From Planctomycetia bacterium (lineage in GTDB: Bacteria > Planctomycetota > Planctomycetia > Pirellulales > UBA1268): DNA of 64,000 nucleotides. The stretch is taken from assembly GCA_021414115.1 (NCBI GenBank), contig JAIOPD010000095.1, forward strand, positions 21,989 through 85,988. The letters run 5' to 3'. Position numbers and translations under genes: made by a program. Below are positions 49,529-64,000 of the stretch, one piece after another. Each line of letters starts with the position of its first letter. The first letter of the stretch is position 1. A model generated the notes under the pieces. It did no database searches, was not told the DNA's origin, and worked only from the letters and a program-made list of their open reading frames with translations.

Positions 49529-49626
49529 ACGAGCCCGTCAGGGAGCGGTGACGACCGCGGCCAGGCGTGAGGCGATGACGTCGAGCACGGCGGGGTGCCG
49601 TCCATCCAGCCGCGATGGGCGCCGGC

Positions 49627-49771
49627 TGCGGAATCCTGCGAAAAGAGCCAAAGCTCCCCGAGTAGGATTCGTCACAACCGCCGTTTTCTCCGAAAAAAGA
49701 CCTGAGTCAGGGAGAAGGCGACTCAAAAAGCGACTCACTTTTTCGTCCGCATGAGGACGCATGAGGTCGCA
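49627..49771. repeat. att-like site 8 (core 49650-49671, class A arm 49718-49737); left end of the lower-GC element
   Basis: Core AAAGCTCCCCGAGTAGGATTCG; arm GCGACTCAAAAAGCGACTCA at +68; then CGCATGAGGACGCATGAGGTCGCA. Confidence 0.9.
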
Positions 49772-49823
49772 GGGAACCGCATTGGCGAATTGCCCCCACT
49801 CCTCCGTCGGCCTTCCGACCCCA

Positions 49824-49970
49824 TTAGCCCGAGTCGGCGATCTCCTCCAGCATCCCGTCCACGGTCTCCCTGAAGCCCGAATAAATCAGGATCTCGCCAT
49901 CAGCCTCCTCGTCCAAAAGGAGGTTGGGCAGAAGCGGTGTGAGGCTGGCGAGCAATTCGTGCATCGTCAT
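49824..49970 (-). CDS. Small acidic protein (48 aa), below the ORF-track cutoff
   Basis: MTMHELLASLTPLLPNLLLDEEADGEILIYSGFRETVDGMLEEIADSG; AAGGAG RBS 8 nt upstream. Confidence 0.6.
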   Translation of the reverse strand: MTMHELLASLTPLLPNLLLDEEADGEILIYSGFRETVDGMLEEIADSG

Positions 49971-50062
49971 GGGCGTGGCTCCTTTTCATCTGAAAGAAAC
50001 CGCGTGGAACTACATGGAGGACGAGGGTTCAGTCGGGGAAAACCCCATAACCAGCCCTTTTA

Positions 50063-50091
50063 TTGACACCCCTCTGGCTGGGTGCTAACCT
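50063..50091 (+). promoter_or_regulatory. Putative sigma-70 promoter
   Basis: TTGACA-17 bp-TAACCT with an extended TGn, upstream of the PEP-CTERM gene. Confidence 0.55.
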
Positions 50092-50303
50092 CCCTTAAGT
50101 CGCCCGTGTCCGCCGATTCTTTTTCGGCTTTTTGGAGTTCGCTACTGCACGCACCCGTCATTGCTGTCTGACTGACACGGTGACCTTCTTTTGCGGGCAG
50201 TGTTTCAGTTTTCAAGCAAGCGTGCATGTCTTTTCGCACGCTTCTCCGCGGAAGTCGGCAGGTCTTTCAGCATGGTGGCGAGTGCCTTGCCGGAGACTTG
50301 TCT

Positions 50304-51440
50304 ATGGCTCTTTTCGCAAACCTGTTTGTTGTCTTCGCCTTAATCGTGGCGATGTCGTCAAAGGCTTGCTCTACTCCCATTGAGTTTTCGCAAGGCGGAA
50401 TGACTTTCGTGGAGGTGGGCGACCCTGGCAACGCCAACACCCAATACGGCAATTATTATGGTGCTGTCAACTACTCATTCGGCATAGGCAAATACGAGGT
50501 GACGATCGAGCAATACTGCGAGTTCTTGAATGCAGTAGCCAAGTCCGACCAATATGGCCTTTACGATGCTCGGATGGGGACAAATCTGAATGTCGCTGGC
50601 ATCAGTCGGTCAGGATCGTCGGGAGCGTACGCCTTTAGCGTGATGGACAACGGGGGCAACAGTGGTAACCGTCCGATCAGCTATATGTCGGCGTTGACGG
50701 CGATGCGTTACGCCAACTGGATGAGCAATGGCAAAGGCTCAGGTAGCACCGAGACGGGAGCCTATACCCTTAACGGCCAGACAAGCGGACTGTTGCCCGA
50801 CCGAAATCCCAACGCTGGCTTCTATGTCCCAACCGAGAATGAGTGGTACAAGTCTGCCTATTACGATCCGATGATTAACAATGGGGCGGGTGGATATCAC
50901 AACTTCGCAACCCAGGGTTTCCAGCTTGGAAATATCATTGGTAGCGAGCCGAATCAGGCAAATGTTGCAATCGCGTTCTTTCCGCCTTTGGAGGGAGGTG
51001 GCGGTTCTACTGGATATTTTGGCGTATTGTCCGTCACCCAGGTGGCGACATATGACGCCAACCAGAACTACCTGACCGATGTCGGGGCGTTTGGTGGGAG
51101 TCCGAGTTTCTACGGCACATTTGATCAGGATGGGAATGTTTCCGAGTTGTCGTTAGTGCCAGGAGCGGGGATAGTCGTCTTGCGTGGACTGTCTTGGAAC
51201 CAAGCCAACGACCATGGTGGACCGCGGTTGGCGATGTATTCCTACAGCCGTGAAAGTTGGTCTGGATTCGGTAGTAATGGGGGTTTTGATATCACGCCCG
51301 ATGCGTTTCCACCCCTAATCCCTTCTGGCTTCCGCCTCACCTACATCCAGCCCGTTCCCGAGCCGTCGTCTGTGGTGCTAGCGGGGGTAGGTGTGTGCTT
51401 CGGCATCGTGTGGCACCTTCGTCGTCGCGGAGTTGCGTGA
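50304..51440 (+). CDS. FGE-sulfatase-fold (SUMF1-like) protein with PEP-CTERM sorting signal
   Basis: VGDPGN, IGKYEVT..QY..FLN, PTENEWYKSAY, GTFDQDGNVSE, GFR, VPEPSS-TM-RRR. Confidence 0.88.
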   Translation: MALFANLFVVFALIVAMSSKACSTPIEFSQGGMTFVEVGDPGNANTQYGNYYGAVNYSFGIGKYEVTIEQYCEFLNAVAKSDQYGLYDARMGTNLNVAGISRSGSSGAYAFSVMDNGGNSGNRPISYMSALTAMRYANWMSNGKGSGSTETGAYTLNGQTSGLLPDRNPNAGFYVPTENEWYKSAYYDPMINNGAGGYHNFATQGFQLGNIIGSEPNQANVAIAFFPPLEGGGGSTGYFGVLSVTQVATYDANQNYLTDVGAFGGSPSFYGTFDQDGNVSELSLVPGAGIVVLRGLSWNQANDHGGPRLAMYSYSRESWSGFGSNGGFDITPDAFPPLIPSGFRLTYIQPVPEPSSVVLAGVGVCFGIVWHLRRRGVA

Positions 51441-51453
51441 CCTGTTTGGTTGC

Positions 51454-51588
51454 TCACCCCCCAATCGCCTTGAAGGTGACCCACCAGATGAAACAGAAAA
51501 TGGCTACGCCCATGCAGAATCCGAGAAGTGGCGGGTAGACAAGGCATCCAATCGTCACGACGCCGAAATAGATCGCCCATGGCTTCAT
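51454..51588 (-). CDS. Small hydrophobic membrane peptide (44 aa)
   Basis: MKPWAIYFGVVTIGCLVYPPLLGFCMGVAIFCFIWWVTFKAIGG; GAGGAG upstream. Confidence 0.55.
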   Translation of the reverse strand: MKPWAIYFGVVTIGCLVYPPLLGFCMGVAIFCFIWWVTFKAIGG

Positions 51589-51625
51589 TGTTTGCGACTC
51601 TCCTCAAGCCAGCCCAAGTCCTTCT

Positions 51626-51778
51626 TCATTGCATGTTCCCGCAGATCACGGTGGCGACAAGAAGAAGGAAAAGCATGAAGGGCATGCTGAACGGCACGGC
51701 ACCGAGCAAGGCGAGGAGAAGTGTCAGGACGACACCGAAGATCGCGATGCCCGCGAGATCCTGAAATTCAATGAACAT
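51626..51778 (-). CDS. Small hydrophobic membrane peptide (50 aa)
   Basis: MFIEFQDLAGIAIFGVVLTLLLALLGAVPFSMPFMLFLLLVATVICGNMQ; shares a leader with the 49824-49970 ORF. Confidence 0.55.
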   Translation of the reverse strand: MFIEFQDLAGIAIFGVVLTLLLALLGAVPFSMPFMLFLLLVATVICGNMQ

Positions 51779-51902
51779 GGCGGTGCCTACGGGATTTCCC
51801 AAAGGAACCAGCCATCGGGCGATGGAGGACGAAAAGCCTGTTGCGGGACGGGGGGAGTTGCTACCCTATTGGGTTAGTCCATGGCCCCTCAAAGGAGTCC
51901 CG

Positions 51903-52676
51903 ATGAAACGCCTCATTCTTGCTCTAGTTGCTGTGTGCCTTTGCCACCAGGCACCAGCCCAAGACCCCGCCCTGCAAGGGGTTCCCACCTCGTTGCTTCG
52001 GGTTTTTGAAAAAGCAGAGTCAGACATCCGTCGCAACCGCGAGGAGTACGAAAAGGCGAACGATAAAACCCTTGCCGAGTTCAACAAGACGGTGAAGAAA
52101 GAAGTGGATCGCCTCTCCAAGGCGGGAAAGCCCGAAGAGGCTTTGGCCCTCAAGGATTCTGCGGAAGCGTGGTTTCAGCAGGCTATGGGAGGATCCGCTC
52201 CAGATGCGGTTCCGCAGGTGCCCACAGATCAGGGCGATAAAAGGAAGAACCCGAATGGGCGAGTTTGCCTGGTGGACATTAAGCCACTGACAACAGAAGG
52301 CGTGTTTGTCGTAGAGGAACAGCACGAAGGGAAACGCCCACTAATTAACGGGCAACCGACTACGGAGCCTTTTATTTTCACCACTGCCCCATCCAAACTT
52401 GCTTGGGAAGTGCCAGATGGAAAGAAGGTGTTTCGTGCCTATGCGTACTACCTTGCGTGTCCACAGTGCGAAGAGGGACGCACGGCGGTGATGGAAGTGC
52501 ATGCTGACGGGAAACCCATTGCGAGATCAGCGGTTATTTCAATTAACAACAGACTTGCCCTCGTGGAAGCAAAAATTCCTCGTGGCACAAAAACTCTCTT
52601 GTTAGTGACCGATCCGAATGGAGATTCGGTTTATGATAATTGTTTGTGGGTGAACCCAAGTTTCTTTGACCGTTAG
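51903..52676 (+). CDS. Secreted protein, coiled coil plus NPCBM/NEW2-like domain
   Basis: AAGGAG RBS, signal peptide, APS...VHADGK...L.LVTDP.GD..YD..W.NP. Confidence 0.6.
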   Translation: MKRLILALVAVCLCHQAPAQDPALQGVPTSLLRVFEKAESDIRRNREEYEKANDKTLAEFNKTVKKEVDRLSKAGKPEEALALKDSAEAWFQQAMGGSAPDAVPQVPTDQGDKRKNPNGRVCLVDIKPLTTEGVFVVEEQHEGKRPLINGQPTTEPFIFTTAPSKLAWEVPDGKKVFRAYAYYLACPQCEEGRTAVMEVHADGKPIARSAVISINNRLALVEAKIPRGTKTLLLVTDPNGDSVYDNCLWVNPSFFDR

Positions 52677-52870
52677 CCCTTCGGCTCACACCGCCCCACG
52701 ATCTTCCAAAACTCTTTGTGGTGATCGGGATAGAGAGTGTCGCGATAGATTTCCGCACAGCACTCAAATCCACCTGGATCGTCCGATAGATCGTCCTTCA
52801 CGACGATCATGACGACGCTGAACTCATTGGCCTGCTTCTGAGCGAGTTCCGTGGCTTCTTTAAGGGTCAT
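52673..52870 (-). CDS. Small hypothetical protein (65 aa)
   Basis: AGGA RBS; leader resembles those of the other small minus-strand ORFs. Confidence 0.55.
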   Translation of the reverse strand: MTLKEATELAQKQANEFSVVMIVVKDDLSDDPGGFECCAEIYRDTLYPDHHKEFWKIVGRCEPKG

Positions 52871-53019
52871 GGCGGTTCCTGCGATAGCGACTCAAGAAAG
52901 ACGCCGTCGGCATGGTGTTAGGGCGAGGAAGATGCCGGAGTACCCTATGAAGGGAGCGAGTGGGTGCTACCAAATAGGGGCTGGCTCCGCATTACTCCCT
53001 CCGCAAAGGAGTCCGAACT

Positions 53020-54477
53020 GTGGTTCGTCTGATTGCCACATGCGTCTTGATCGCCGTCGTCTCGGCTTGCCAGGCTGATGAAGTAGCCAATCCAAAGAAC
53101 GCCCAGGATGTTCTTGCTGTTGAAATAGCAGGCTTTCTTGCACAGCGACCCACGGTCATCTATTGGGTTATTGACGAGTCCGTGAGCATGGTGCCCCAGA
53201 GGAAAGCGATTGCCAAACGGCTGGACAAGATTTGCAACCAACTCAACAACCAACAACTCCGAAGTGTGGTCGTGTCCTTTGGTCAGAGGGTGACTGTCGT
53301 TACTCACTCCCCGACGACGAATCTGACCACGGTAATCAATGCCATAGAGCAGATTCCTGTAGACGACAGTGGCGTTGAAGTGCCATTCAGTGCCATCAAG
53401 CAGGTTGTAGCCCTTGCCACGGGTGTCCAGCCCAAGGGAAATGCGATCATCGTTCTATTCACTGACGAAGTCGGCAACGATGACAGTCTTTCCGAACGCA
53501 CAACCGAGGACTGCCGAAAAGCGAGGATCCCTGTCTATGTCGTCGGAGTTCCCGCTCCATTCGGACGAGACGAGTTGATAGTTGCATGCGATCCGAGGGA
53601 TCAACAGGATGTCGCTTTGGGAGTGGTGAACCGCGGAGCAGAGTCGCGTTTTCCTGAAGCGGTGCATCTCGCAAACGACACTCCGGTTGATTCCGGCTTC
53701 GGTCCATTTCTACTTTCCAAGATCTGTGCGGACACTGGCGGTGCGTATTTCAGAGCAAACACCGCTAACGGAGATGTGTCTGAAGACGAAAATGCTCGGA
53801 AGGAGTACGGACTGAACAAGTTCTTCTCGCCGGAAACGATGAAGCCCTACCGACCGAGTTATGGGTCGCGTGAAGCGAGTGAACGCGAACTTGCGTTAAA
53901 CCGAGCCAAAAGCACGCTCGTAGAGACGTCCAGGTTAGCCATCGCTAGTCCCATCGCTTCACTCCAAATGGTATTTTCCGGCGAGGATTACAGAGTCCGC
54001 AATGAACTCCTCGGGGAAGCCCAGAAGCAGTGTGCAAGAAACCATGCCAAAATAGATGGTCTCTCCGCACGCCTCCATGCCGGGCTACCCGATAGAGCGA
54101 AGGTACAGGAGAAAAGGTGGCAGGCTGGTTATGACCTTGCACTCGGACGGGTGCTTGCCATGAAGGTCAGAGCAGATACTTACAACATGATGCTCGCGTG
54201 GGCGAAGAGCGGGATGCAGTTCAAGGACAAGAACAGCAACACTTGGGAACTTGTGCCAAGCGACAAAACACTACTCGTCGGGAAAACGGCGGAGATCGCA
54301 CGGCAGGCGAAGGCACTTCTAGAGAAGGTCGTGGCGGAGCATCCGGGAACGCCTTGGGCGTACTATGCGTCCGAAGAGCTGAAGACCCCTTTTGGGTACG
54401 AGTGGAATGAGAGGCATAGCGTTGAGGCTCCCAAAGAGACGCCTTCTCCTCCGAAGAGGCAACCGCGGAGGATCTAA
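53020..54477 (+). CDS. vWA-domain protein
   Basis: MIDAS-like DESVSM, FTDEVG.D, DSGFGPF.L, TGG.YF, HPGTPWA. Confidence 0.8.
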   Translation: MVRLIATCVLIAVVSACQADEVANPKNAQDVLAVEIAGFLAQRPTVIYWVIDESVSMVPQRKAIAKRLDKICNQLNNQQLRSVVVSFGQRVTVVTHSPTTNLTTVINAIEQIPVDDSGVEVPFSAIKQVVALATGVQPKGNAIIVLFTDEVGNDDSLSERTTEDCRKARIPVYVVGVPAPFGRDELIVACDPRDQQDVALGVVNRGAESRFPEAVHLANDTPVDSGFGPFLLSKICADTGGAYFRANTANGDVSEDENARKEYGLNKFFSPETMKPYRPSYGSREASERELALNRAKSTLVETSRLAIASPIASLQMVFSGEDYRVRNELLGEAQKQCARNHAKIDGLSARLHAGLPDRAKVQEKRWQAGYDLALGRVLAMKVRADTYNMMLAWAKSGMQFKDKNSNTWELVPSDKTLLVGKTAEIARQAKALLEKVVAEHPGTPWAYYASEELKTPFGYEWNERHSVEAPKETPSPPKRQPRRI

Positions 54478-54506
54478 ACGGTGCCTTCTTTCTCACGACA
54501 GCAGTT

Positions 54507-55442
54507 CTAGTAGTTGATCCTCTCCGACGACTCCGCCAGTTGCCCCGCTGATCGTTTCGTGTAGCGGGCGGTCGTATTCATTGATTCATGCCCCAATAAT
54601 TGAGCCAGCGAGACGAGGTCGTTCGCGTTGTCCGCTAAAAACTTTTTGGCAAAAGTGTGGCGAAGAAGGTGCGGATGGATCTTCACCCCGATCAGTGCGG
54701 AATACTTGTCGCAGAGTTTCCTCACGCCCGTCTCGGTCAATGCTCCACGGCACCCAAGGAAGACCCTGTTGGAGGATGATGGGGGACGGACATCCAGCCA
54801 CGCCTGCATCGCCCGTCGTGCTGGCAGTGGGAGCGGAACCGTTCTCTGCTTTCCGCCTTTTCCGACACGGAAGGTAGCGGAGCCAGATCGCTCGCCGAGA
54901 ACCAGGTCAGAGAGTTCCAACTGAACCAAGTCGCCACACCTGCACCCGCTGTAGAGGAGCAGATGGAAGATCGCATTCGCCCGCACATCGCTCCGTAGTT
55001 CAATCTCCCGAAGGAGCCGACGGACTTCGTGGGCATCAAGACCCTTGGGTGCCAACTCCACGCGACGCAGTTCTTTCACGGGCTTCGCGGGATCCGCTTT
55101 GAGGTCGCCTCTCTCCACGAGCCAGCCGAAGAACCGACGGAGGAGGGTCACGGCTCGGTTCACCGTCGCGACAGCCAAGCCCTTCTCATTCCTCATGTAG
55201 TTCCTAAAGGCGGTGACATCACGCACCGTCACCCGCTCCAGGACGAAGGCTTCACCGTTTCGCTGGTTGAACCAGAGCATGAACCTGCGGAGGTCGTTCG
55301 CAATGGCTTTACGGGTGTTCGGGCGAAAGTCATGCGACTCAAGAAATTGGAGAAACAAGGTTTGCTCCCTCTCTCCAGAGCGGACTCCCTTGAAAGCCTT
55401 ATCGCTCCAAAACCGACGCTCTTCGGGTGTCTTGTAGGACAT
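54507..55442 (-). CDS. Tyrosine recombinase (XerC-like, no obvious arm-binding domain)
   Basis: Catalytic set SGCR, GKGGK, HLLRH, LLGH, TARY; core-binding N-domain with LAVATVNR. Confidence 0.93.
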
Positions 55443-55484
55443 CTATAGGACGCCTTTCGTGGTGATCTGGACGGATAATGACAA

Positions 55485-55949
55485 TTACCGCTCCCCGCTA
55501 TCTGGCGAAAACCGACTCTTGATGGACAGGAAGACCTGGGTGATGAGGACTCCTTGATCGGTGGGCAGTTGCCCGTCGGGATAGAGCGTTGCAATGCACT
55601 GCTCTATGTCCTTTCGGTTTGCCTTCTGCAATCCAAGTCCTCTGACCGCATTGAGCAGTTCCGTGTGATCCTGCTTCGGAGCGGATGCGGGCTTTCCCCT
55701 GGGCTTGGCGGGAAGCGATGTCCGTGAGCCAGTTGCCCGAAACAGCATCGGCTTCCCGTTCATGCCCTTGTTGGTTCTGCGGATCTCCACGATCTGCATC
55801 TGTTGCTCACGGTCAAAGTACGGACGCCCATGCTCATCCCGTTTCGGCAACGGAAAAACCGTGCCGAGCAATTGATTGAAACGGCTTCGGCTCATGCGGA
55901 TCAGCCGAGCGGTCTCCGCGATGTTCATCGCTTCACGGTATTCACTCAT
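55485..55949 (-). CDS. HTH DNA-binding protein (AlpA/MerR-like, possible directionality factor)
   Basis: MNIAETARLIRMSRSRFNQL..VFP.P.RD..GRPYF; start overlaps the upstream stop. Confidence 0.75.
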   Translation of the reverse strand: MSEYREAMNIAETARLIRMSRSRFNQLLGTVFPLPKRDEHGRPYFDREQQMQIVEIRRTNKGMNGKPMLFRATGSRTSLPAKPRGKPASAPKQDHTELLNAVRGLGLQKANRKDIEQCIATLYPDGQLPTDQGVLITQVFLSIKSRFSPDSGER

Positions 55950-56889
55950 TCGTCAGCCCTCCCGTGAGATGTTCCTTCCCCTTGGGCGTCAGGTACCGCT
56001 TGCTCTGCTTGCCCTTCTCCATCAGTCCCGAGCGAATGAGGAAAGGCTCAATCACCGTTGTGAGGGTGCGAAGAGGTAGTGAAAGATGGCTCGCCAGCAC
56101 ATTGACAGGCTTCTCGCTCTCAAGGAGCAGGGATAGGTACTTCAGGTCAGTCGCGACATTCAGCCCCAGCGAATCTATTCCCGAAAGCGTGAACGCTTTT
56201 CGCATGTGGACGGGGCGGATCGTGTCCTCACCTTCCGACCTGCTGACCAATCGGCATGACTGCAAAAGGTTGAACGCGATGCGGGGAGTTCCTCTGCTCC
56301 GTCGTGCGATGGGGGCTACGCACCACGGGTCAATGTCCCAGCCAAGACTCTTCGCCCGCACGAAGAGCATTCGTTTCAAATCCTCTTCGCAATAGAACTG
56401 GAAGCGAAGGGTCAGCCGACAGCGGTCACGAAGTGGCTGGAGCATCCCGTACTCTTCCGTCGTCGCGAGCAGAAGCGTGAAGTCCGCCAGCGGAAGGCTC
56501 TGGACGGAGCCACCTGACGACAGGAAAAGCATCTTCTTGTCCAACGCGAGGTAGAGAGCGGTTTGGATCGGGATGGGCAGGGTGTCGCTCTCGTCCACGA
56601 ACACGATGCTCTTTTCCGTCGCACCCAATAGGAGAGCGTTGAGATCCGCAGGGGTGCGGAGGGTTTGACCGAGGACTTCCTTGAACGGGACGCACAGTTC
56701 CGACGCAATCACATTCGCCAATACGGACTTGCCCAAACCAGGGCTTCCGACGAGCGACGCATGCGGAAACCTCTGGCTGTCCTGAAAAGACACATCAAGT
56801 GCGACCTTCACCATTTCGTGCATGGATTTCTGGCTGGCTGACTCCAAGTGCTTGAGGCTGGTCGGCTGGACATCGTTGACTTCGTTCAT
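55942..56889 (-). CDS. RuvB-like AAA+ ATPase paralog
   Basis: GSPGLGKS, FVDE, FTLLLATT, PLRDR, RGTPRIA, D.LGL and EPFL follow RuvB motif order; no ruvA or ruvC nearby. Confidence 0.85.
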   Translation of the reverse strand: MNEVNDVQPTSLKHLESASQKSMHEMVKVALDVSFQDSQRFPHASLVGSPGLGKSVLANVIASELCVPFKEVLGQTLRTPADLNALLLGATEKSIVFVDESDTLPIPIQTALYLALDKKMLFLSSGGSVQSLPLADFTLLLATTEEYGMLQPLRDRCRLTLRFQFYCEEDLKRMLFVRAKSLGWDIDPWCVAPIARRSRGTPRIAFNLLQSCRLVSRSEGEDTIRPVHMRKAFTLSGIDSLGLNVATDLKYLSLLLESEKPVNVLASHLSLPLRTLTTVIEPFLIRSGLMEKGKQSKRYLTPKGKEHLTGGLTNE

Positions 56890-56913
56890 TTGGGGAACCT
56901 TTCAATGGCAAAT

Positions 56914-56971
56914 CGGACGCTTATCGGACGCCTTGCGGACGCTTGCGGGACACCCGCAGAAGTCACAACCG
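56914..56971. promoter_or_regulatory. Phased direct repeats upstream of the ruvB-like operon
   Basis: CGGACGC at 56914, 56925 and 56936 (11 bp period); GTCACAACCG at 56962. Confidence 0.6.
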
Positions 56972-57179
56972 TTTGCCAGGAGAATTTCCGATAAGAATTT
57001 TTCTGCCCTGAAAAACAGGGGTTTCGGCGTTCAATAGCCAAGGCACGGTTGGTCACGGGAGGGAGGGGCTGGGTCGGGTTCTGGGTCGGTTTCCCAAACA
57101 GACCCCCACCCCTGCATCCAAGGACGGAATCAGTTCTCCTTGATGCGAGAAAAATCACCCCCCAGCCCCTAGATAGGGC

Positions 57180-57917
57180 ATGGGTTCATTCACTGATTTC
57201 TTGGTGCCGAGAATGGCGTTGGCGAGGTTGCTTCGCGAGCATTCGGAATATCTTGATCCGAAGACGATAGACGACCTTTTCCACAAGGAAGCCGAAAAAC
57301 GGCTCCCGATGGTTGCGGATCCCGAGGTGCGTGAGGATCTGCTTGCCTTCTTGAAAATGCGACCCACCGCCTACATGGACAAGGCTTTGAGGCGGGCGAA
57401 TATCCCCGAGGCAGACTTGGATGAGGCGATCCAGACCCTCGTGGTGAAGTTCCTCTACTCGCCTGGCTCCCTATTTGGGCGATGGGATGTCCGCTATCCG
57501 TTCACGCCCCGTTTTAAGCTGAGTGTGAAAAATGGAGTCATCACGCTCGCCCAGAAGAGGCAAAGGCGGGCGAAGCGGTTTCAGCAACTACCCGCCGATC
57601 CCGTCGCCAAAAAGCCTGGACTCGCGGATGATCCGATTAGGGATTTCCGCAATTGGATTGAGATGGAATATGGCGAACCTGTCGCCCGTGTGCTGGATCA
57701 GAGGCTCGCGGATAAGGACACGAAGGAATTGATCGGTCAGCCAGGGCTGGAGACGGCCTATGCCGTGAAACAGGCGGTACTGAAGATCAAGGCGGGAGCG
57801 GTTCGCTGGAGCCATTCGCATCCAGATTTTCTCCTCCGCGTGGCTCGGCTCATGGAAAGGGAGGCCGAGACGATGCAGAGGCGATTCGGCGGGAAGGAGT
57901 TGATCGGGGCGGGCTGA
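57180..57917 (+). CDS. Hypothetical protein with weak ECF-sigma-like pattern
   Basis: DLDEAIQTLVVK..F..WD..F..RFKLSVKN resembles region 2; possible C-terminal HTH. Confidence 0.5.
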   Translation: MGSFTDFLVPRMALARLLREHSEYLDPKTIDDLFHKEAEKRLPMVADPEVREDLLAFLKMRPTAYMDKALRRANIPEADLDEAIQTLVVKFLYSPGSLFGRWDVRYPFTPRFKLSVKNGVITLAQKRQRRAKRFQQLPADPVAKKPGLADDPIRDFRNWIEMEYGEPVARVLDQRLADKDTKELIGQPGLETAYAVKQAVLKIKAGAVRWSHSHPDFLLRVARLMEREAETMQRRFGGKELIGAG

Positions 57918-58050
57918 TCGTCCCCCTATCTGGAAGGGTCGCAAACCCTTATTTTATTGGGGTTTGCAGGACACGGACCTCGTTTGGCCGTCCCCCGAGT
58001 AATGCTGTGGGGTTCGCCAACAGTATTCACCCGTCACGAAAGGATAGGCA

Positions 58051-58512
58051 ATGAACCGCGAAGAACTGGCGGAAGAGATTCGGGGAGCAGGTTTTGCGTT
58101 GCGTTACGCCGATGGCCCCGTGATCGGTGGCTCATTGAAGAGCAAGAAGAGTGCCGCCACGCAGTCCACACGACGCAAACTCAAGGAGTCTGATTGGGTA
58201 ATCGTTCGTCGGGCGTCCACTTGCCATACCTGTGGCAGGCGTGCATCCGATACCGACATTGAGTTTGCGGAGAGCATGGCTAGCAACTACCAGGATTTTG
58301 GAAGGCTGATCTGGCTGTGCATCAAGCACACCAGGGGATGCGATTCGGTATCAGGCATAACTGTCTCCGAGGAAGCCACGAAAGCGTTTGCCAAGGCTCG
58401 GAAGAAGTGGGAAAGAAAGACCGCGGAGAAAGCCAAGGAGACAGAGAACAAGGTACAGAAGACGAAGCCAACGAAGTCAGCCGACAAAAAGCGACCTCGT
58501 GACAAGAAATAG
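58051..58512 (+). CDS. Hypothetical protein (CxxC, basic tail)
   Basis: AAGGA RBS, CHTCG and LCIKH motifs, Lys-rich C-terminus. Confidence 0.6.
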   Translation: MNREELAEEIRGAGFALRYADGPVIGGSLKSKKSAATQSTRRKLKESDWVIVRRASTCHTCGRRASDTDIEFAESMASNYQDFGRLIWLCIKHTRGCDSVSGITVSEEATKAFAKARKKWERKTAEKAKETENKVQKTKPTKSADKKRPRDKK

Positions 58513-58554
58513 AAAAGACGGTCGGTCACTCAAGCAGGTTCAGGCCTCCACCAC

Positions 58555-61323
58555 ATGACCCCCGAAAAAGAAGCCCGCGTCCTGATTGACCAGCACCTTC
58601 GGGATGCTGGTTGGATCGTTCAGGATCCCGACGCCATTAACTTGAGCGAGGGGATGGGCATCGCTGTCCGTGAGTTCCCTCTGAACACGGGCTTTGCGGA
58701 CTACCTCCTGTACGCGGACGGGAGGGCGATCGGCGTCGTGGAGGCCAAGCCCGAGGGATTTCCTCTCAAGGGTGTGGAGACCCAGTCCAGCAAATACACC
58801 TTTGGGCTTCCGAAGGATCTCCCCCACTACCACCTCCCTCTCCCATTCGCCTATGAGACGACAGGGAAGGCGACCCAGTTCACGAACGCCCTGGAACCCG
58901 ACTTCCGAAGCCGTGAGGTTTTCTCGTTCCATCGTCCCGAGGAATTGATTCGGCTGGTCACCAAGGATGACCAGATGCGGGCGTCACTTCGGAAGATGCC
59001 TCCCTTGGATGTCGGGCAACTGTGGAGGGTTCAGGTTGGGAGCATCACCAATCTTGAAAAGAGCCTTGCCGAGAATCGCCCGCGTGCCTTGATTCAGATG
59101 GCGACGGGGTCAGGCAAGACCTTCACGGCGGTCAACTTCTGCTACCGACTCATCAAGTACGCGGGAGCGAAGCGGATCCTTTTCCTCGTTGACCACAACA
59201 ACCTAGGGAAGCAGACACTCAACGAGTTCCAGCAGTTCTCGAGCCCCAGTACGGGCTACAAGTTCACCGAGGAGTACGAGGTTCAGCACCTCAAGGGCAA
59301 GACCATCAGCCCGAGTAGCAAGGTCTGCATCACCACGATCCAACGCCTCTATGCCATGCTCGCCAACAACGAGTTGGACGAGGAGGCAGAGGAGGGTTCG
59401 CTGTTTGAGACCGACACTTCCCTCGTCAAAGAGCCGATGATGGTCGGCTACAACCCAGCCATCCCCATAGAGACCTTTGATTTCATTGTCGTGGATGAGT
59501 GCCACCGCTCCATCTACAACCTTTGGCGACAGGTCTTGGATTATTTTGATGGGTTCCTCATCGGTCTCACCGCCACTCCCACGAAACAGACCCTGGGCTT
59601 CTTCAATGAGAATCTCGTCCAGGACTACGGTCACGAGCAGGCCGTCCTGGACAAGGTCAATGTTGGCTTTGATGTCTTCACGATTGAGACCCAGGTCACC
59701 AAGGAGGGAGCGAAACTGGTCAAGGAACCAGGTGTCTTCGTTCCCCACCGCGACCGACGCACGAAGAGCACGAAATACAAGGAACTGGACGACGACCTGA
59801 CCTACACGGCAGGGCAGTTGGATCGGGATGTCGTCAACAAGAGCCAGATCAGGCTCGTAGTGGAGACCTTCAAGAACAGGCTCCCCGAGATCTTTCCTGG
59901 TCGTACCGAGGTGCCGAAAACCCTTTTCTTCGCAAAGACCGACCAGCACGCGGAGGACATTGTCCAGACGATCCGTGAGGTCTTCGGTCGGGGCAACGAC
60001 TTCTGTCAGAAAATCACGAGCAAGAGCACGGGAGCCAAGCCCGAGGATCTGCTCAACCAGTTCCGCAATTCCTATGACCCACGCATTGCGGTCACCGTGG
60101 ACATGATCGCCACGGGGACGGATGTGAAGGCGCTGGAATGCCTGGTCTTCATGCGGAATGTGAAGTCACTGGGCTACTTTGAGCAGATGAAGGGTCGGGG
60201 ATGCAGGGTGGTTAGTCCCGACGAACTGACGAAAGTCACTCCCGACGCCAAGGTGAAGACCCACTTCGTGATCGTGGATTGCGTGGGTGTCTGCCTTGAG
60301 GAGAAATCGGCCACAAAGCCACTGGATCGGGAGCCGTCTGTCCCCTTGGACAAGTTGCTTGATCTCGTGAGCAAAGGGGTGGCGAATGACGACCTCGCCT
60401 CAAGCATCGCCTCAAAACTTGTCAGGCTGGATCAGCGTTTGGACGACAGCCAGAGGGAGATGATCCAGGACGCCTCGGGAGGCAGGAATCTCCAGCAGAT
60501 CAGTGCGGAACTCCTCGCGAGCATTGACCCTGACAAGAACACGGAACTCGCAAAGAAAAAGTTTGGAGTTGAGGAGCCGTCAGAGGAGCAGGTCCGCAAG
60601 GTGGAGCGGGAACGGGTCGCCGAAGCCCTGAAGACCTTCCACCAGCCCAAACTGCGGGAAGCCATCCTCGGGGCAAGGCGATCGTTGGATCAGGTCATAG
60701 ACGAGCAGACGCCCGATGTCCTGCTCAAAGCGGGGTTTAGCGAGGAAGCCCTCCTCAAGGCCCGCACGATGCTCACATCGTTCAAGAAGTTCATTCTGGA
60801 CAACAAGGACGAGATTGAGGCTATCAAGATCCTCTACAGCCGTCCCTACCGTGCTGGGCTTCGGTTCAAGCACATCAAGGAACTGGCGACGAAACTGAAC
60901 CAGCCCCCGTTCTATGTGGATCCGTCCCGCCCCGAGTCACTCGTTCGCCTCTGGCAAGCCTATGAACTGACCGAGCCAGAGAAGGTGAAGGGAAAGGGCG
61001 GGAAGCAGTTGGTGGATGTGGTGGCGTTGGTCAAGCACGCCTTGGATCCTTCCACACCCTTGGCTCCCATGGGCATGACCGTTGAGGAGCGGTATCAGGA
61101 GTGGCTTGGGGAGAAAGAGAAGGCTGGGGTCACCTTCACCGCGGATCAGAAGAAATGGCTGGATGCGATCAAGGATCACATAGCCAGCAGTCTCGCCATT
61201 GAACAGGACGACCTTGAAGAGGTGCCGTTCAACACGATCGGTGGACTTGGTCGTGCCTATGAGTTGTTCGGCGACAGGCTCGCTCCCATCCTTGATGAAC
61301 TCAATATGAGGCTGGCGGTATGA
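58555..61323 (+). CDS. hsdR: Type I restriction endonuclease subunit R (EcoEI/EcoAI-like)
   Basis: ADY..VEAK nuclease motif, MATGSGKT, DECHRS, LTATP, QMKGRG.R. Confidence 0.93.
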   Translation: MTPEKEARVLIDQHLRDAGWIVQDPDAINLSEGMGIAVREFPLNTGFADYLLYADGRAIGVVEAKPEGFPLKGVETQSSKYTFGLPKDLPHYHLPLPFAYETTGKATQFTNALEPDFRSREVFSFHRPEELIRLVTKDDQMRASLRKMPPLDVGQLWRVQVGSITNLEKSLAENRPRALIQMATGSGKTFTAVNFCYRLIKYAGAKRILFLVDHNNLGKQTLNEFQQFSSPSTGYKFTEEYEVQHLKGKTISPSSKVCITTIQRLYAMLANNELDEEAEEGSLFETDTSLVKEPMMVGYNPAIPIETFDFIVVDECHRSIYNLWRQVLDYFDGFLIGLTATPTKQTLGFFNENLVQDYGHEQAVLDKVNVGFDVFTIETQVTKEGAKLVKEPGVFVPHRDRRTKSTKYKELDDDLTYTAGQLDRDVVNKSQIRLVVETFKNRLPEIFPGRTEVPKTLFFAKTDQHAEDIVQTIREVFGRGNDFCQKITSKSTGAKPEDLLNQFRNSYDPRIAVTVDMIATGTDVKALECLVFMRNVKSLGYFEQMKGRGCRVVSPDELTKVTPDAKVKTHFVIVDCVGVCLEEKSATKPLDREPSVPLDKLLDLVSKGVANDDLASSIASKLVRLDQRLDDSQREMIQDASGGRNLQQISAELLASIDPDKNTELAKKKFGVEEPSEEQVRKVERERVAEALKTFHQPKLREAILGARRSLDQVIDEQTPDVLLKAGFSEEALLKARTMLTSFKKFILDNKDEIEAIKILYSRPYRAGLRFKHIKELATKLNQPPFYVDPSRPESLVRLWQAYELTEPEKVKGKGGKQLVDVVALVKHALDPSTPLAPMGMTVEERYQEWLGEKEKAGVTFTADQKKWLDAIKDHIASSLAIEQDDLEEVPFNTIGGLGRAYELFGDRLAPILDELNMRLAV

Positions 61324-62876
61324 GCGAGGACAAGGGACTGCCGAAGGGGTGGGCGGAGACACCGCTACCACTCATTGCCGAGATTAACCCGTCCAGGGGA
61401 ACAATCACGAACCCGTTGGAGTCGCCCGTCCACTTCGTCCCGATGGCGAGCGTGTCAGAAGAGTTCGGTGGCATAGATGTTTCTACCTTTAGGCCGTTGA
61501 GCGAGGTACAGAAGGGCTACACCGCTTTTCGTGAGGACGATGTTCTGTTCGCCAAGATCACGCCCTGCATGGAGAACGGAAAACTTGCGGTCGTCCCAAG
61601 GCTGGATTACGGCGTTGGCTTCGGCTCAACGGAGTTCCATGTTCTTCGTCCAACACTTGCCGTAACTCCGCGGTGGATCGGTCATTTCCTGTCGCAATCG
61701 GGAGTGCGGAGAAATGCCAGGAGGAATATGACCGGCAGTGCTGGTCAGTTGCGTGTTCCGACCGTGTGGCTCAATGACCAAGTCCTTCCGCTACCTCCCC
61801 TCCCCGAACAACATCGCATCGTTGAAAAGATTGAGGAACTCTTCAGCGACCTTGATGCGGGCGTCGCCAGCCTCCAGCGAGCCAAGGCGAATCTGAAGCG
61901 ATACAGGGCATCGGTTCTGAAGTCGGCTGTTGAGGGCAGGCTGACGGAGGAATGGCGGAACGAGCATCCCCAGGCTGAAGACGGCCAGATGCTCCTTGAT
62001 CGCATCCTTCGTGAGCGACGGGAGAAGTGGGAGAAGGATCAACTCCTAAAGTTCAAGGAAAAGGGCAAGGAGCCACCCAAAAACTGGGAGAGCAAATACG
62101 AGGAGCCATCAGCACCAGACACGAGCGACTTGCCCGAACTACCCGAGGGATGGGTGTGGGCGAGCCTTGAAGCCGTGTCGGATGTCACTGGGGGTATCAC
62201 AAAAGACAAAAAGAAGGACTCATTGCCAGGACTGCGTGAGGTGCCGTATCTGCGTGTGGCGAATGTCCAGCGAGGATTCCTTGACCTGTCCGAAATGAAG
62301 ACGATCAAGGCATCTCCCGAGGATATTCAGGAACTCGCCCTATGCAGAGGTGATGTCCTGTTCACGGAGGGAGGAGACAGGGACAAGTTGGGGCGTGGGT
62401 GGGTCTGGTCAGAGGAGTTGCCCGAGTGCATTCACCAGAACCACATCTTCCGTGCGAGGCTCTCGTCGTCGGGCATTCAGCCGTCTTTGGTGTCCCACCA
62501 CGGAAACACATTCGGACGGCAGTGGTTCACGAAGGCAGGAAAGCAGACGACCAACCTCGCTTCTATAAATCTCGGAATCCTGAAAAGGTTTCCTGTCCCT
62601 CTTCCTCCGCCCGCCGAACAAGAACAGATCGTCAGTCTCGTTGAGGAACGCCTCTCCCAGATTGATTCCGCCGAGAAGACGATTGATGCGGAACTCATCA
62701 GAGCAAAGAGGCTCCGCCAATCCATTCTGAAAATAGCCTTTGAAGGGAAACTCGTTCCCCAGGATCCGAAGGACGAGCCTGCCAGCGTCCTTCTGGAGCG
62801 GATCAAGGCGACCAGGGAAGCCGAACAGCCAAAGAAGAAAGCCAGGAAGGCGACGAAGGGGAAGGCCAAGTCATGA
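61320..62876 (+). CDS. hsdS: Type I restriction specificity subunit S
   Basis: Two TRDs (LPKGW.., LPEGW..), PLPPLPEQHRIV and PLPPPAEQEQIV, AFEGKLVPQDP.DEPA. Confidence 0.93.
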   Translation: MSEDKGLPKGWAETPLPLIAEINPSRGTITNPLESPVHFVPMASVSEEFGGIDVSTFRPLSEVQKGYTAFREDDVLFAKITPCMENGKLAVVPRLDYGVGFGSTEFHVLRPTLAVTPRWIGHFLSQSGVRRNARRNMTGSAGQLRVPTVWLNDQVLPLPPLPEQHRIVEKIEELFSDLDAGVASLQRAKANLKRYRASVLKSAVEGRLTEEWRNEHPQAEDGQMLLDRILRERREKWEKDQLLKFKEKGKEPPKNWESKYEEPSAPDTSDLPELPEGWVWASLEAVSDVTGGITKDKKKDSLPGLREVPYLRVANVQRGFLDLSEMKTIKASPEDIQELALCRGDVLFTEGGDRDKLGRGWVWSEELPECIHQNHIFRARLSSSGIQPSLVSHHGNTFGRQWFTKAGKQTTNLASINLGILKRFPVPLPPPAEQEQIVSLVEERLSQIDSAEKTIDAELIRAKRLRQSILKIAFEGKLVPQDPKDEPASVLLERIKATREAEQPKKKARKATKGKAKS

Positions 62877-63868
62877 AGGTGTTCGTTAGTTCCACTGTCT
62901 ATGACTTGGTGGACGCCAGGGCAGAGGTGGAGGCCTTGCTGACGGAAATGCACCTCACGCCAGTCCTGTCGGATAGTTCCTCCGCTTATTTTCAGATCAC
63001 TCCCGACCGCAACTCCGTTGAATGCTGTCTCGTAAATCTTCGCCAGTGCGATGCAGTGATCCTCATGTTGTCGCAACGCTATGGTCCAGCGTTGCCATTC
63101 TGGGAAGATCCGACTTTGTCGGCGACCCATGCCGAGTATCGGGAGGCCCGCAAGTGCGGTAAGCCGATCTATGTCTATGTGCGGGATCGCTTGGAAGGCG
63201 AGTTCGCGATCTACAAACGGAACCAAGACGCCTCGTTAGAGTGGCGGTGGTCAGGAAAGGACGGCAGAAGTCTCTTTGGCCTGCTCAAGGAGCATTGCAC
63301 TCCCATCACCGAGGAGAATCACAGCAATTGGTTCAGCATCTTTCGCGACTCGGTGGAACTCAAGCAACTCGTTCGTAGGGATTTCCACGCCGTTGCGTCA
63401 CGCTCTCACTTGGAGAGCCTGTTAGAAGACAATCGCATTCCGCTTGTGGGCGTTGCCGTCAGCGTGCGAGATGGTACTTCGCCCCAGTCGGCGGTGTGGC
63501 CCGTGGATGTTGTTTTTCGCAACAACGGAACGATGCCCGCCCTACGCCTTTCCTACACGCTCGGCGGAGGGGTCACGCTGGAGGCAGAGGAAGTGCCAAT
63601 ACTCGCACCGAATGAAACCCACACCCGCACCATTGAACTCCGCAACACGATCAACGGCATTGTTCAGTGGCAGGTGCTAGCCACCTACTACACAGCACAG
63701 GGGCACCGAGTACAGGATCGCTATTCCGCAGGACTCATGCACATGCCGTTGCGACTGCCGTTCTGCCACGCCACCTTGCAGAACAAGACCTACTTCCCTT
63801 CAGACGGCAGCATTATTCCCTACGACATCGCTTCTGCCGATTCACCAACAGACGCTAACAACAAATGA
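62873..63868 (+). CDS. DUF4062-domain protein inside the RM operon
   Basis: KVFVSSTVYDL..R, C..V...RYG, SATHAEY.EA. Confidence 0.8.
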   Translation: MKVFVSSTVYDLVDARAEVEALLTEMHLTPVLSDSSSAYFQITPDRNSVECCLVNLRQCDAVILMLSQRYGPALPFWEDPTLSATHAEYREARKCGKPIYVYVRDRLEGEFAIYKRNQDASLEWRWSGKDGRSLFGLLKEHCTPITEENHSNWFSIFRDSVELKQLVRRDFHAVASRSHLESLLEDNRIPLVGVAVSVRDGTSPQSAVWPVDVVFRNNGTMPALRLSYTLGGGVTLEAEEVPILAPNETHTRTIELRNTINGIVQWQVLATYYTAQGHRVQDRYSAGLMHMPLRLPFCHATLQNKTYFPSDGSIIPYDIASADSPTDANNK

Positions 63869-64000
63869 CCAACAACCAATCCCAACAGATCGTCAACAAG
63901 GCATGGAACTTCGCCCATGTCCTCCGTGACGACGGCCTGTCCTACATGGGCTACACGGAACAGATCACCTTCCTTCTGTTCCTCAAGATGGCGGATGAAC
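63865..64000 (+). CDS. hsdM: Type I methyltransferase subunit M (5' part)
   Basis: MTNNQSQQIVNKAWNFAHVLRDDGLSY..Y.EQITFLLFLKMADE. Confidence 0.9.
   Translation, partial: MTNNQSQQIVNKAWNFAHVLRDDGLSYMGYTEQITFLLFLKMADE

Follow-up and report, generated by a model that had tools for sequence, protein, structure and literature searches.

RuvB is known to act as a motor at junctions, relying on RuvA to find its substrate. In the 64,000-nucleotide stretch of planctomycete DNA analysed here (the window), a gene for a RuvB-like ATPase overlaps a small gene for a helix-turn-helix (HTH) protein, which is followed by a tyrosine recombinase gene, and neither RuvA nor RuvC is encoded in the locus. How might such a motor be brought to DNA, and what might it do there? 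An earlier reading of this DNA, made from its letters alone (the sequence-only reading), had proposed a self-contained recombination module in which the HTH protein loads RuvB to migrate the Holliday junction of the recombinase. The reading preferred here, to which slightly less than an even chance is given, is a site-loaded DNA pump that would be loaded by sequence-specific recognition and would keep the excised island monomeric and inherited.

A RuvB-adaptor-recombinase locus in a genomic island

54507-55442, minus strand: tyrosine recombinase, 311 aa, intact, with SAM and catalytic domains; 42-bp gap after the adaptor gene; read as the resolvase for the adjacent site
55485-55949, minus strand: adaptor (HTH protein), 154 aa; 8-bp overlap with the RuvB-like gene
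55942-56889, minus strand: RuvB-like ATPase (the paralog), 315 aa
56914-56955, minus strand: four short direct repeats with an 11-bp period, just 5' of the RuvB start; candidate adaptor site, read from sequence
57180-57917, plus strand: divergent gene of unknown function, 245 aa; relatives in 18 related loci
49600-64000, no strand: low-GC island, with type I restriction genes from 58555

The three genes are present and intact on the minus strand inside a low-GC island, where the sequence-only reading had placed them. The GC content drops from 0.67-0.69 to 0.53-0.59 at ~49.6 kb and stays low up to the end of the window (genome GC, 0.67), and the flank match with genomes of the same genus stops at about 49,530-49,630. 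The island reaches the contig end, 2.1 kb beyond the window, and its right border lies outside the contig. No tRNA was found in the 64-kb window, and a simple scan found no sigma-70 promoter. The 57180-57917 gene is tied to a subset of the islands; its neighbours in the Atlas are hypothetical proteins, one cluster being 25% Sigma70_r2. Type I restriction genes occupy 58555-63868, with a DUF4062 gene between hsdS and a methylase-like ORF. In contigs from other runs, 62866-63863 and 58023-58551 are missing and the hsdS target domains differ; the gaps in the contigs of four runs are gene-sized, with no joint at the core recombination site among the joints listed.

The paralog is not the host's sole RuvB. 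A canonical ruvC-ruvA-ruvB operon lies on another contig (C39) and encodes a second RuvB that scores above the TIGR00635 cut-off and is 32-34% identical to the paralog. For comparison, 141 related loci from genomes and metagenomes were used, the metagenome part being the best 80 of 416; 138 of them contain a near-full paralog and 107 have at least 700 bp of sequence downstream. The lack of RuvA and RuvC extends to these loci, none of the 141 giving a match in tblastn with the host RuvA and RuvC.

The RuvB paralog

55942-56889, minus strand, kept features: Walker A, Walker B, sensor 1, arginine finger R156, sensor 2 R203 and the wing basic residues K292/R298
55942-56889, minus strand, changed features: N-terminal Arg and ED signature altered; hairpin 2-4 residues shorter

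The paralog has the three-domain RuvB architecture, with Walker A and B, arginine finger and sensor 2; Pfam RuvB_N, AAA_lid_4 and RuvB_C are all above their cut-offs. It misses both NCBIfam RuvB equivalog cut-offs (192 bits vs 282 and 178 vs 299). The best 120 homologues listed are 52-96% identical, and the record titles of the relatives are mostly from Planctomycetota. In a FastTree phylogeny of 151 de-duplicated sequences (from 252; midpoint root), 82 paralogs form one clade on a long stem (0.81, support 0.86) apart from 31 canonical proteins.

Conservation across the 82 paralogs indicates which parts of the RuvB machine are kept. The Walker A G/G/K, Walker B DE, arginine finger and sensor 2 residues are 99-100% conserved and so are K292 and R298; the catalytic and wing residues overall are at 95-100%. 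Residue roles were taken from the accessible part of PMC9477746 and their numbering mapped onto the paralogs by alignment; K292 and R298 align with two DNA-gripping arginines named there. The nucleotide gate (Arg21, Glu128-Asp129) is not kept: Arg21 occurs in 16% of the paralogs and the ED signature is DK or DQ (D in 90%, then K in 46% or Q in 38%). Since the gate is altered relative to RuvB, pumping may be altered or lost. The sensor-1 TTR of plain RuvB is TTD/E in the paralogs.

The hairpin, noted beforehand as shorter than in housekeeping RuvB, has 21-24 residues in 81 of 82 paralogs vs 25 in 31/31 canonical proteins. The Walker B sequence DESD, to which attention had also been drawn, is present here but is not a trait of the family: DExH occurs in 94% of the 82 paralogs and DExD in 5%, and DESD is a local variant of a family Walker B of the form DE[AC]H.

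Two unusual kinds of locus were seen among the relatives. L075:67-993 and L077 combine a near-identical adaptor and recombinase with a RuvB that is only ~57% identical; the switch point is near window position 56052, and that RuvB has an IS-like insertion at its 5' end. Genome G025 has six extra RuvB copies (L298-L303); the four examined are long HNH-RuvB fusions, which the tree places beside the island paralogs.

The adaptor and its predicted complex with the motor

55485-55949, minus strand: adaptor, 154 aa; winged HTH, basic flexible linker and three-helix RuvA-domain-III-like tail
55749-55934, minus strand: Xis/AlpA/MerR-type winged HTH, residues 6-67, from Pfam matches and fold search
55509-55664, minus strand: RuvA domain III-like tail, residues 96-147, from Pfam, profile-profile comparison and complex model

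The fold predicted from an alignment of 87 members (mean pLDDT, 84) consists of a winged HTH (residues ~6-67), a low-confidence basic linker and three helices (96-147). Pfam matches among the 87 adaptors at E<=1 are to HTH_17 (55 members), Phage_AlpA (54), MerR_1 (16) and RuvA_C (9; best E, 6e-4). The nearest folds to the head, with middling scores (Z 5-6.8), are the MerR family, RacA, pSK1 Par and excisionases. No junction-binding domain of RuvA (OB, HhH) was found in the adaptor, whose head is the winged HTH.

That the C-terminus of the HTH protein resembles RuvA domain III, as had been suspected, is borne out by the RuvA_C matches and by profile-profile comparison: the tail aligns end to end with the domain III of 27 RuvA proteins from the planctomycete phylum (45 columns, E 8.6e-4, probability 24%) with a score of 18.8, whereas 39 column shuffles gave at most 14.6. 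The adaptor-tail profile gave no real match to the host RuvA (2.3 bits). A fold search with the tail returned small helical bundles (best Z, 5.5), including UBA-type domains, with RuvA not in the top 50. The sequence support for domain III in the tail is thus modest.

A model of RuvB residues 1-240 with adaptor residues 92-150 scored 0.74, the best of three controls 0.00; this mark was reached by 116 of 157 solved vs 2 of 215 mismatched pairs, counts that are rough, with own alignments. At least 97% of the contacts agree between runs and the partner pLDDT is at least 85. The modelled tail docks on helix 79-89 and hairpin 121-132 of RuvB, which correspond to the surface (alpha3, presensor-1 hairpin) named for RuvA domain III in the part of PMC9477746 that was accessible. 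In the family, interface residues L83, N84 and L88 are invariant and L105, G106 and F140 near-invariant. A like complex has already been solved, so passing this mark shows likeness rather than binding, and the score may reflect memory of solved RuvA-RuvB structures. Within that limit, the earlier suggestion of an adaptor whose domain-III-like tail meets the motor holds in the model, and the adaptor is likely to bind the paralog.

Six-mer enrichment 5' of RuvB gave no clear adaptor motif, the best relevant word occurring in 18 of 103 regions vs 6.5 expected.

Linkage and distribution of the gene pair

The adaptor gene lies 3' of the paralog in all 107 loci with room for it. The converse search, with the adaptor, gave 46 matches in 40 of the 401 genomes of the class, with RuvB upstream in 42; the others, counted by hand, are one at a contig edge and three partial. 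The window's recombinase family was matched 29 times, in 26 genomes; the adaptor lies upstream in 25 cases, three are at contig edges and one has a deletion. The neighbourhood is thus conserved from either side. The family of islands is represented by 235 clusters at 50% identity (E<=1e-30). On genome contigs, a single-protein query found nothing and an alignment query found matches. Neither paralog nor adaptor matched in 72,556 plasmid records, and the adaptor was found neither in phage records nor as a PHROG; single queries of viral contigs gave one adaptor locus and one paralog locus.

An exchangeable recombinase with its own site

55469-55494, no strand: predicted recombination core; two inverted 10-bp arms and a 6-bp spacer; overlaps the adaptor stop codon
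55498-55513, minus strand: direct copy of the arm motif upstream of the core, degenerate here; part of the conserved array
55399-55414, minus strand: second direct copy of the arm motif, in the 5' end of the recombinase gene; part of the conserved array

Among 48 aligned relatives of the recombinase, R168, K195, H258, R261 and H285 are invariant and Y294 is present in at least 90%. Its scores are far below the XerC and XerD equivalog cut-offs (169 vs 335 and 144 vs 330 bits). The R-K-H-R-H-Y set, together with its own inverted core with a 6-bp spacer beside the gene, is what characterizes a single-enzyme tyrosine resolvase.

Some recombinase follows the adaptor in 88 of 94 paralog-anchored loci (those with at least 600 bp after the adaptor) and in 44 of 46 adaptor-anchored ones, but it is not always the same one. 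The slot holds three tyrosine and two serine recombinase families: i) the window's family (76 of the 94 loci); ii) a short tyrosine recombinase (5); iii) a third tyrosine recombinase (1); and iv) serine recombinases (5 + 1); six loci have none. After clustering at 90% RuvB identity the numbers are, in the same order, 64, 4, 1, 4, 1 and 6 of 80, and among the 46 adaptor-anchored loci 25, 5, 13 and 0 + 1, with 2 unknown. Pfam Resolvase or Phage_integrase was confirmed in seven examples of the third gene. On the RuvB tree, from which three frameshifted rows were dropped and whose deep nodes are weak, the serine loci occupy three separate positions, one of them in the sister group of the window's protein (support 0.95).

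The array consensus, derived from 58 of 62 distinct sites, has inverted arms around a variable spacer, a direct copy before them and another ~70 bp after. The array resembles dif. The core at 55469-55494 has the best score in the window and the genome (21.9); no second strong copy was found in the window, where the next best scores 9.3, and some loci and other parts of the genome have weaker matches (13-19). As a rule a locus has a single strong site, which fits a resolution site, unlike an attachment site. A core scoring at least 12 was found at 19 of 24 adaptor-anchored places with the window's recombinase (four identical to training sites) vs 1 of 19 with others, so site and recombinase move as a unit and the adaptor probably does not target the array. 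Inverted pairs of their own were identified by eye in the other two tyrosine families.

Islands, boundary integrases and cargo

Seven of eight long regions contain a separate integrase-like gene of 487-601 aa at the boundary, and the idea of a self-contained module is therefore not borne out. Five of these integrases belong to one family (23-32% identity), in which they were placed by their motifs and position, none having a catalytic Pfam match; one has Pfam Phage_integrase and one lies beside an HTH_17 gene. Four adjoin a called tRNA or tmRNA. Members of the divergent family beside tRNA or tmRNA genes include L233:5343-6902, L317:384-2186 and L321:4504-6192. Islands of 19, 47 and 61 kb are bounded by direct repeats of 14 bp (at a tRNA-Ala end), 55 bp and 22 bp, respectively; a fourth case is weak and two regions gave none. 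The islands may be composite, so an integrase need not belong to the same unit as the motor-adaptor pair. The exchangeable third gene, the site that travels with it and the separate boundary integrase together leave motor and adaptor as the conserved core, with the recombinase best read as a resolvase.

The cargo is made up of genes for restriction-modification, BREX-like systems and other kinds of defence; 68 loci have ArdC homologues and 11 have DUF932. The 212 selected ORFs of the eight regions, in which Pfam could miss divergent planctomycete proteins, yielded no Tn3 transposase and no family of relaxase, secretion or virion proteins. One island has an AEP-D5 primase-helicase and another ParB; most annotated islands have no recognisable replication gene. 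L014:6122-7861 encodes a 579-aa protein with no Pfam match and relatives in three other loci, a candidate replication protein.

A 5-kb minimal element in genome G403 was considered and rejected, its 'att' repeat recurring at least 11 times 5' of small genes. Locus-specific repeats of 13-16 bp, in at least 11 copies on one strand 5' of RuvB and of small co-oriented genes, were seen in L052:1300-15120, L012, L014 and L015; they look like an early-promoter or operator array, and the small-gene order varies widely between loci.

Possible roles of the motor-adaptor pair

In the preferred reading, the adaptor would bind island DNA by its Xis/MerR-type head, while its tail, on a flexible linker, would tether and stimulate a ring of the RuvB paralog. 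The ring would pump duplex DNA past the fixed adaptor site, the junction recognition of RuvA being replaced by sequence recognition. The recombinase would be an ordinary resolvase of the single-enzyme kind, working on the site beside its gene. Together, motor, adaptor and resolvase would make up a cassette that maintains the excised, copied form of the island: island DNA would be moved or gathered by the motor, and multimers would be converted to monomers by the resolvase. The primase-helicase of one island and the ParB of another speak for this reading. That a recombinase of some kind is almost always present is the chief argument for a functional tie; the six loci of 94 without one, and the lack of a recognisable replication gene in most annotated islands, count against this cassette.

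The same tight linkage could equally mean that the motor helps recombination directly, reeling DNA together or setting direction for whichever resolvase follows, as FtsK does for Xer, and with no Holliday junction involved. The persistence of a recombinase despite changes of family and the overlap of the core site with the adaptor stop codon both favour such help, but five unrelated enzymes would need to accept one helper, and no motif common to the different intergenic regions was seen across the recombinase families. Furthermore, site selection by serine resolvases depends on topology and needs no motor. The same holds for TnpI-type resolvases, according to the portion of PMC2847244 that was available. 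Direct help is accordingly given an outside chance.

A role in establishment or counter-defence is somewhat less probable and is considered unlikely. Expressed early with ArdC and other small genes, the anchored motor would sweep host proteins off the incoming island DNA or open it for expression or replication. This would suit the ArdC and DUF932 cargo, the repeat shared in several loci (up to 11 copies) by RuvB and small co-oriented genes, and the phage fusions described below, which occur without a recombinase (36 of 75 loci). It leaves the constant recombinase neighbour unexplained, however, and most of the loci examined have no such repeat.

Migration of the recombinase's junction by an adaptor-loaded RuvB, as proposed in the sequence-only reading, is improbable. 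Tyrosine enzymes do fill 82 of 94 and 43 of 46 slots, and at ColE1 cer the junction made by XerC is finished by a cellular enzyme (PMC5357621, accessible part). But five families share the slot, two of them serine, and these occupy six of the 94 loci at three places of the RuvB tree, including the sister group of the window's protein. Serine recombinases form no Holliday junction, and their presence makes branch migration of the recombinase's junction unlikely. The adaptor has no junction-binding domain, the site goes with the recombinase rather than with the HTH protein, and in phages domain III fusions occur with no recombinase nearby.

Least probable, and very unlikely, is that the adaptor serves as directionality factor for the boundary integrase, with the motor remodelling the integrase complex for excision: the head is Xis/AlpA-like and boundary integrases are present, but the pair lies 2-35 kb from the integrase, and the integrases differ between islands, one having an HTH_17 gene of its own.

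Relation to known systems

Plasmid partition cassettes have an NTPase gene that overlaps a small DNA-binding adaptor gene, followed by a resolvase. The island cassette has this layout and an adaptor head close in fold to RacA and pSK1 Par; its NTPase, however, is a ring translocase, not ParA, ParM or TubZ, and the candidate pair is absent from the plasmid records searched. The likeness to RuvAB lies in the RuvB fold, the ATPase and DNA-gripping residues and the domain-III-like tether modelled on alpha3 and the presensor-1 hairpin. Unlike RuvAB, the island pair has a sequence-type HTH in place of the OB/HhH junction-binding domains, no RuvC, an altered nucleotide gate and a shorter hairpin, and it sits on mobile islands in a host that has its own ruvCAB.

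Like XerCD/dif with FtsK, XerS and XerH, the locus combines a Xer-like enzyme, dif-like arms with a 6-bp spacer, a gene beside its site and a DNA translocase. It differs in that the enzyme scores far below the XerC/XerD cut-offs and can give way to serine enzymes, and in that the site lies within an island, with an AAA+ RuvB as the translocase. The TnpI site of Tn4430 (IRS) has an inverted core and two direct motifs and is resolved without a motor, and serine resolvases fill the role of TnpI in related transposons, such exchange and such a site being hallmarks of resolution systems (PMC2847244, in the part available). The island shares with TnpI/IRS and Tn3-type resolvases the single recombinase, the adjacent inverted core (6-bp stagger), the two direct motifs, the extent of ~110-120 bp and the exchange of tyrosine and serine enzymes in one role, but here one direct motif lies on either side of the core, no Tn3 transposase was seen, and motor and adaptor precede.

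No description of such a system was known to the sequence-only reading, and none was found in the open-access literature (titles and abstract starts, with most subscription papers outside the scope). Every part is known; the system would be of a new kind if the junction-free role holds. A natural two-gene version loaded at a DNA sequence would show the RuvB motor at work away from junctions and would be the smallest system in which to test how domain III drives its cycle; it could also serve as a programmable DNA translocase. In addition, a maintenance mechanism could then be named for these planctomycete defence islands, a widespread family that has not been described.

Domain III fusions in phages

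A parallel arrangement occurs in viral contigs that carry a canonical-like RuvB. In 36 of 75 such loci with room, a gene of 130-145 aa lies directly upstream, encoding a Cys-rich head and a tail that matches RuvA domain III (probability 89%, E 2.7e-6, values inflated by the selection of these genes with a motif). Only 2 of 80 viral RuvB loci have a RuvA match, and one has a recombinase. Taken together with the planctomycete adaptor, this gene suggests that domain III was re-fused at least twice. It is possible, though rather short of an even chance, that mobile elements have repeatedly re-aimed RuvB by fusing domain III to a winged HTH in islands and, independently, to a zinc ribbon in large phages, yielding junction-free, sequence-addressed pumps of double-stranded DNA that extrude, gather or clear element DNA.

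Examples of the fusion on large phage contigs, with no RuvA, RuvC or recombinase match nearby, are L161:7565-8002, L162:7622-8026, L189:4190-4609 and L191:7571-7996. Proteins of 190-240 aa with a weak RuvA_C match are encoded 1-2 kb 5' of another viral RuvB type at L152:5861-6442, L154:6310-7029 and L156:6327-6902.
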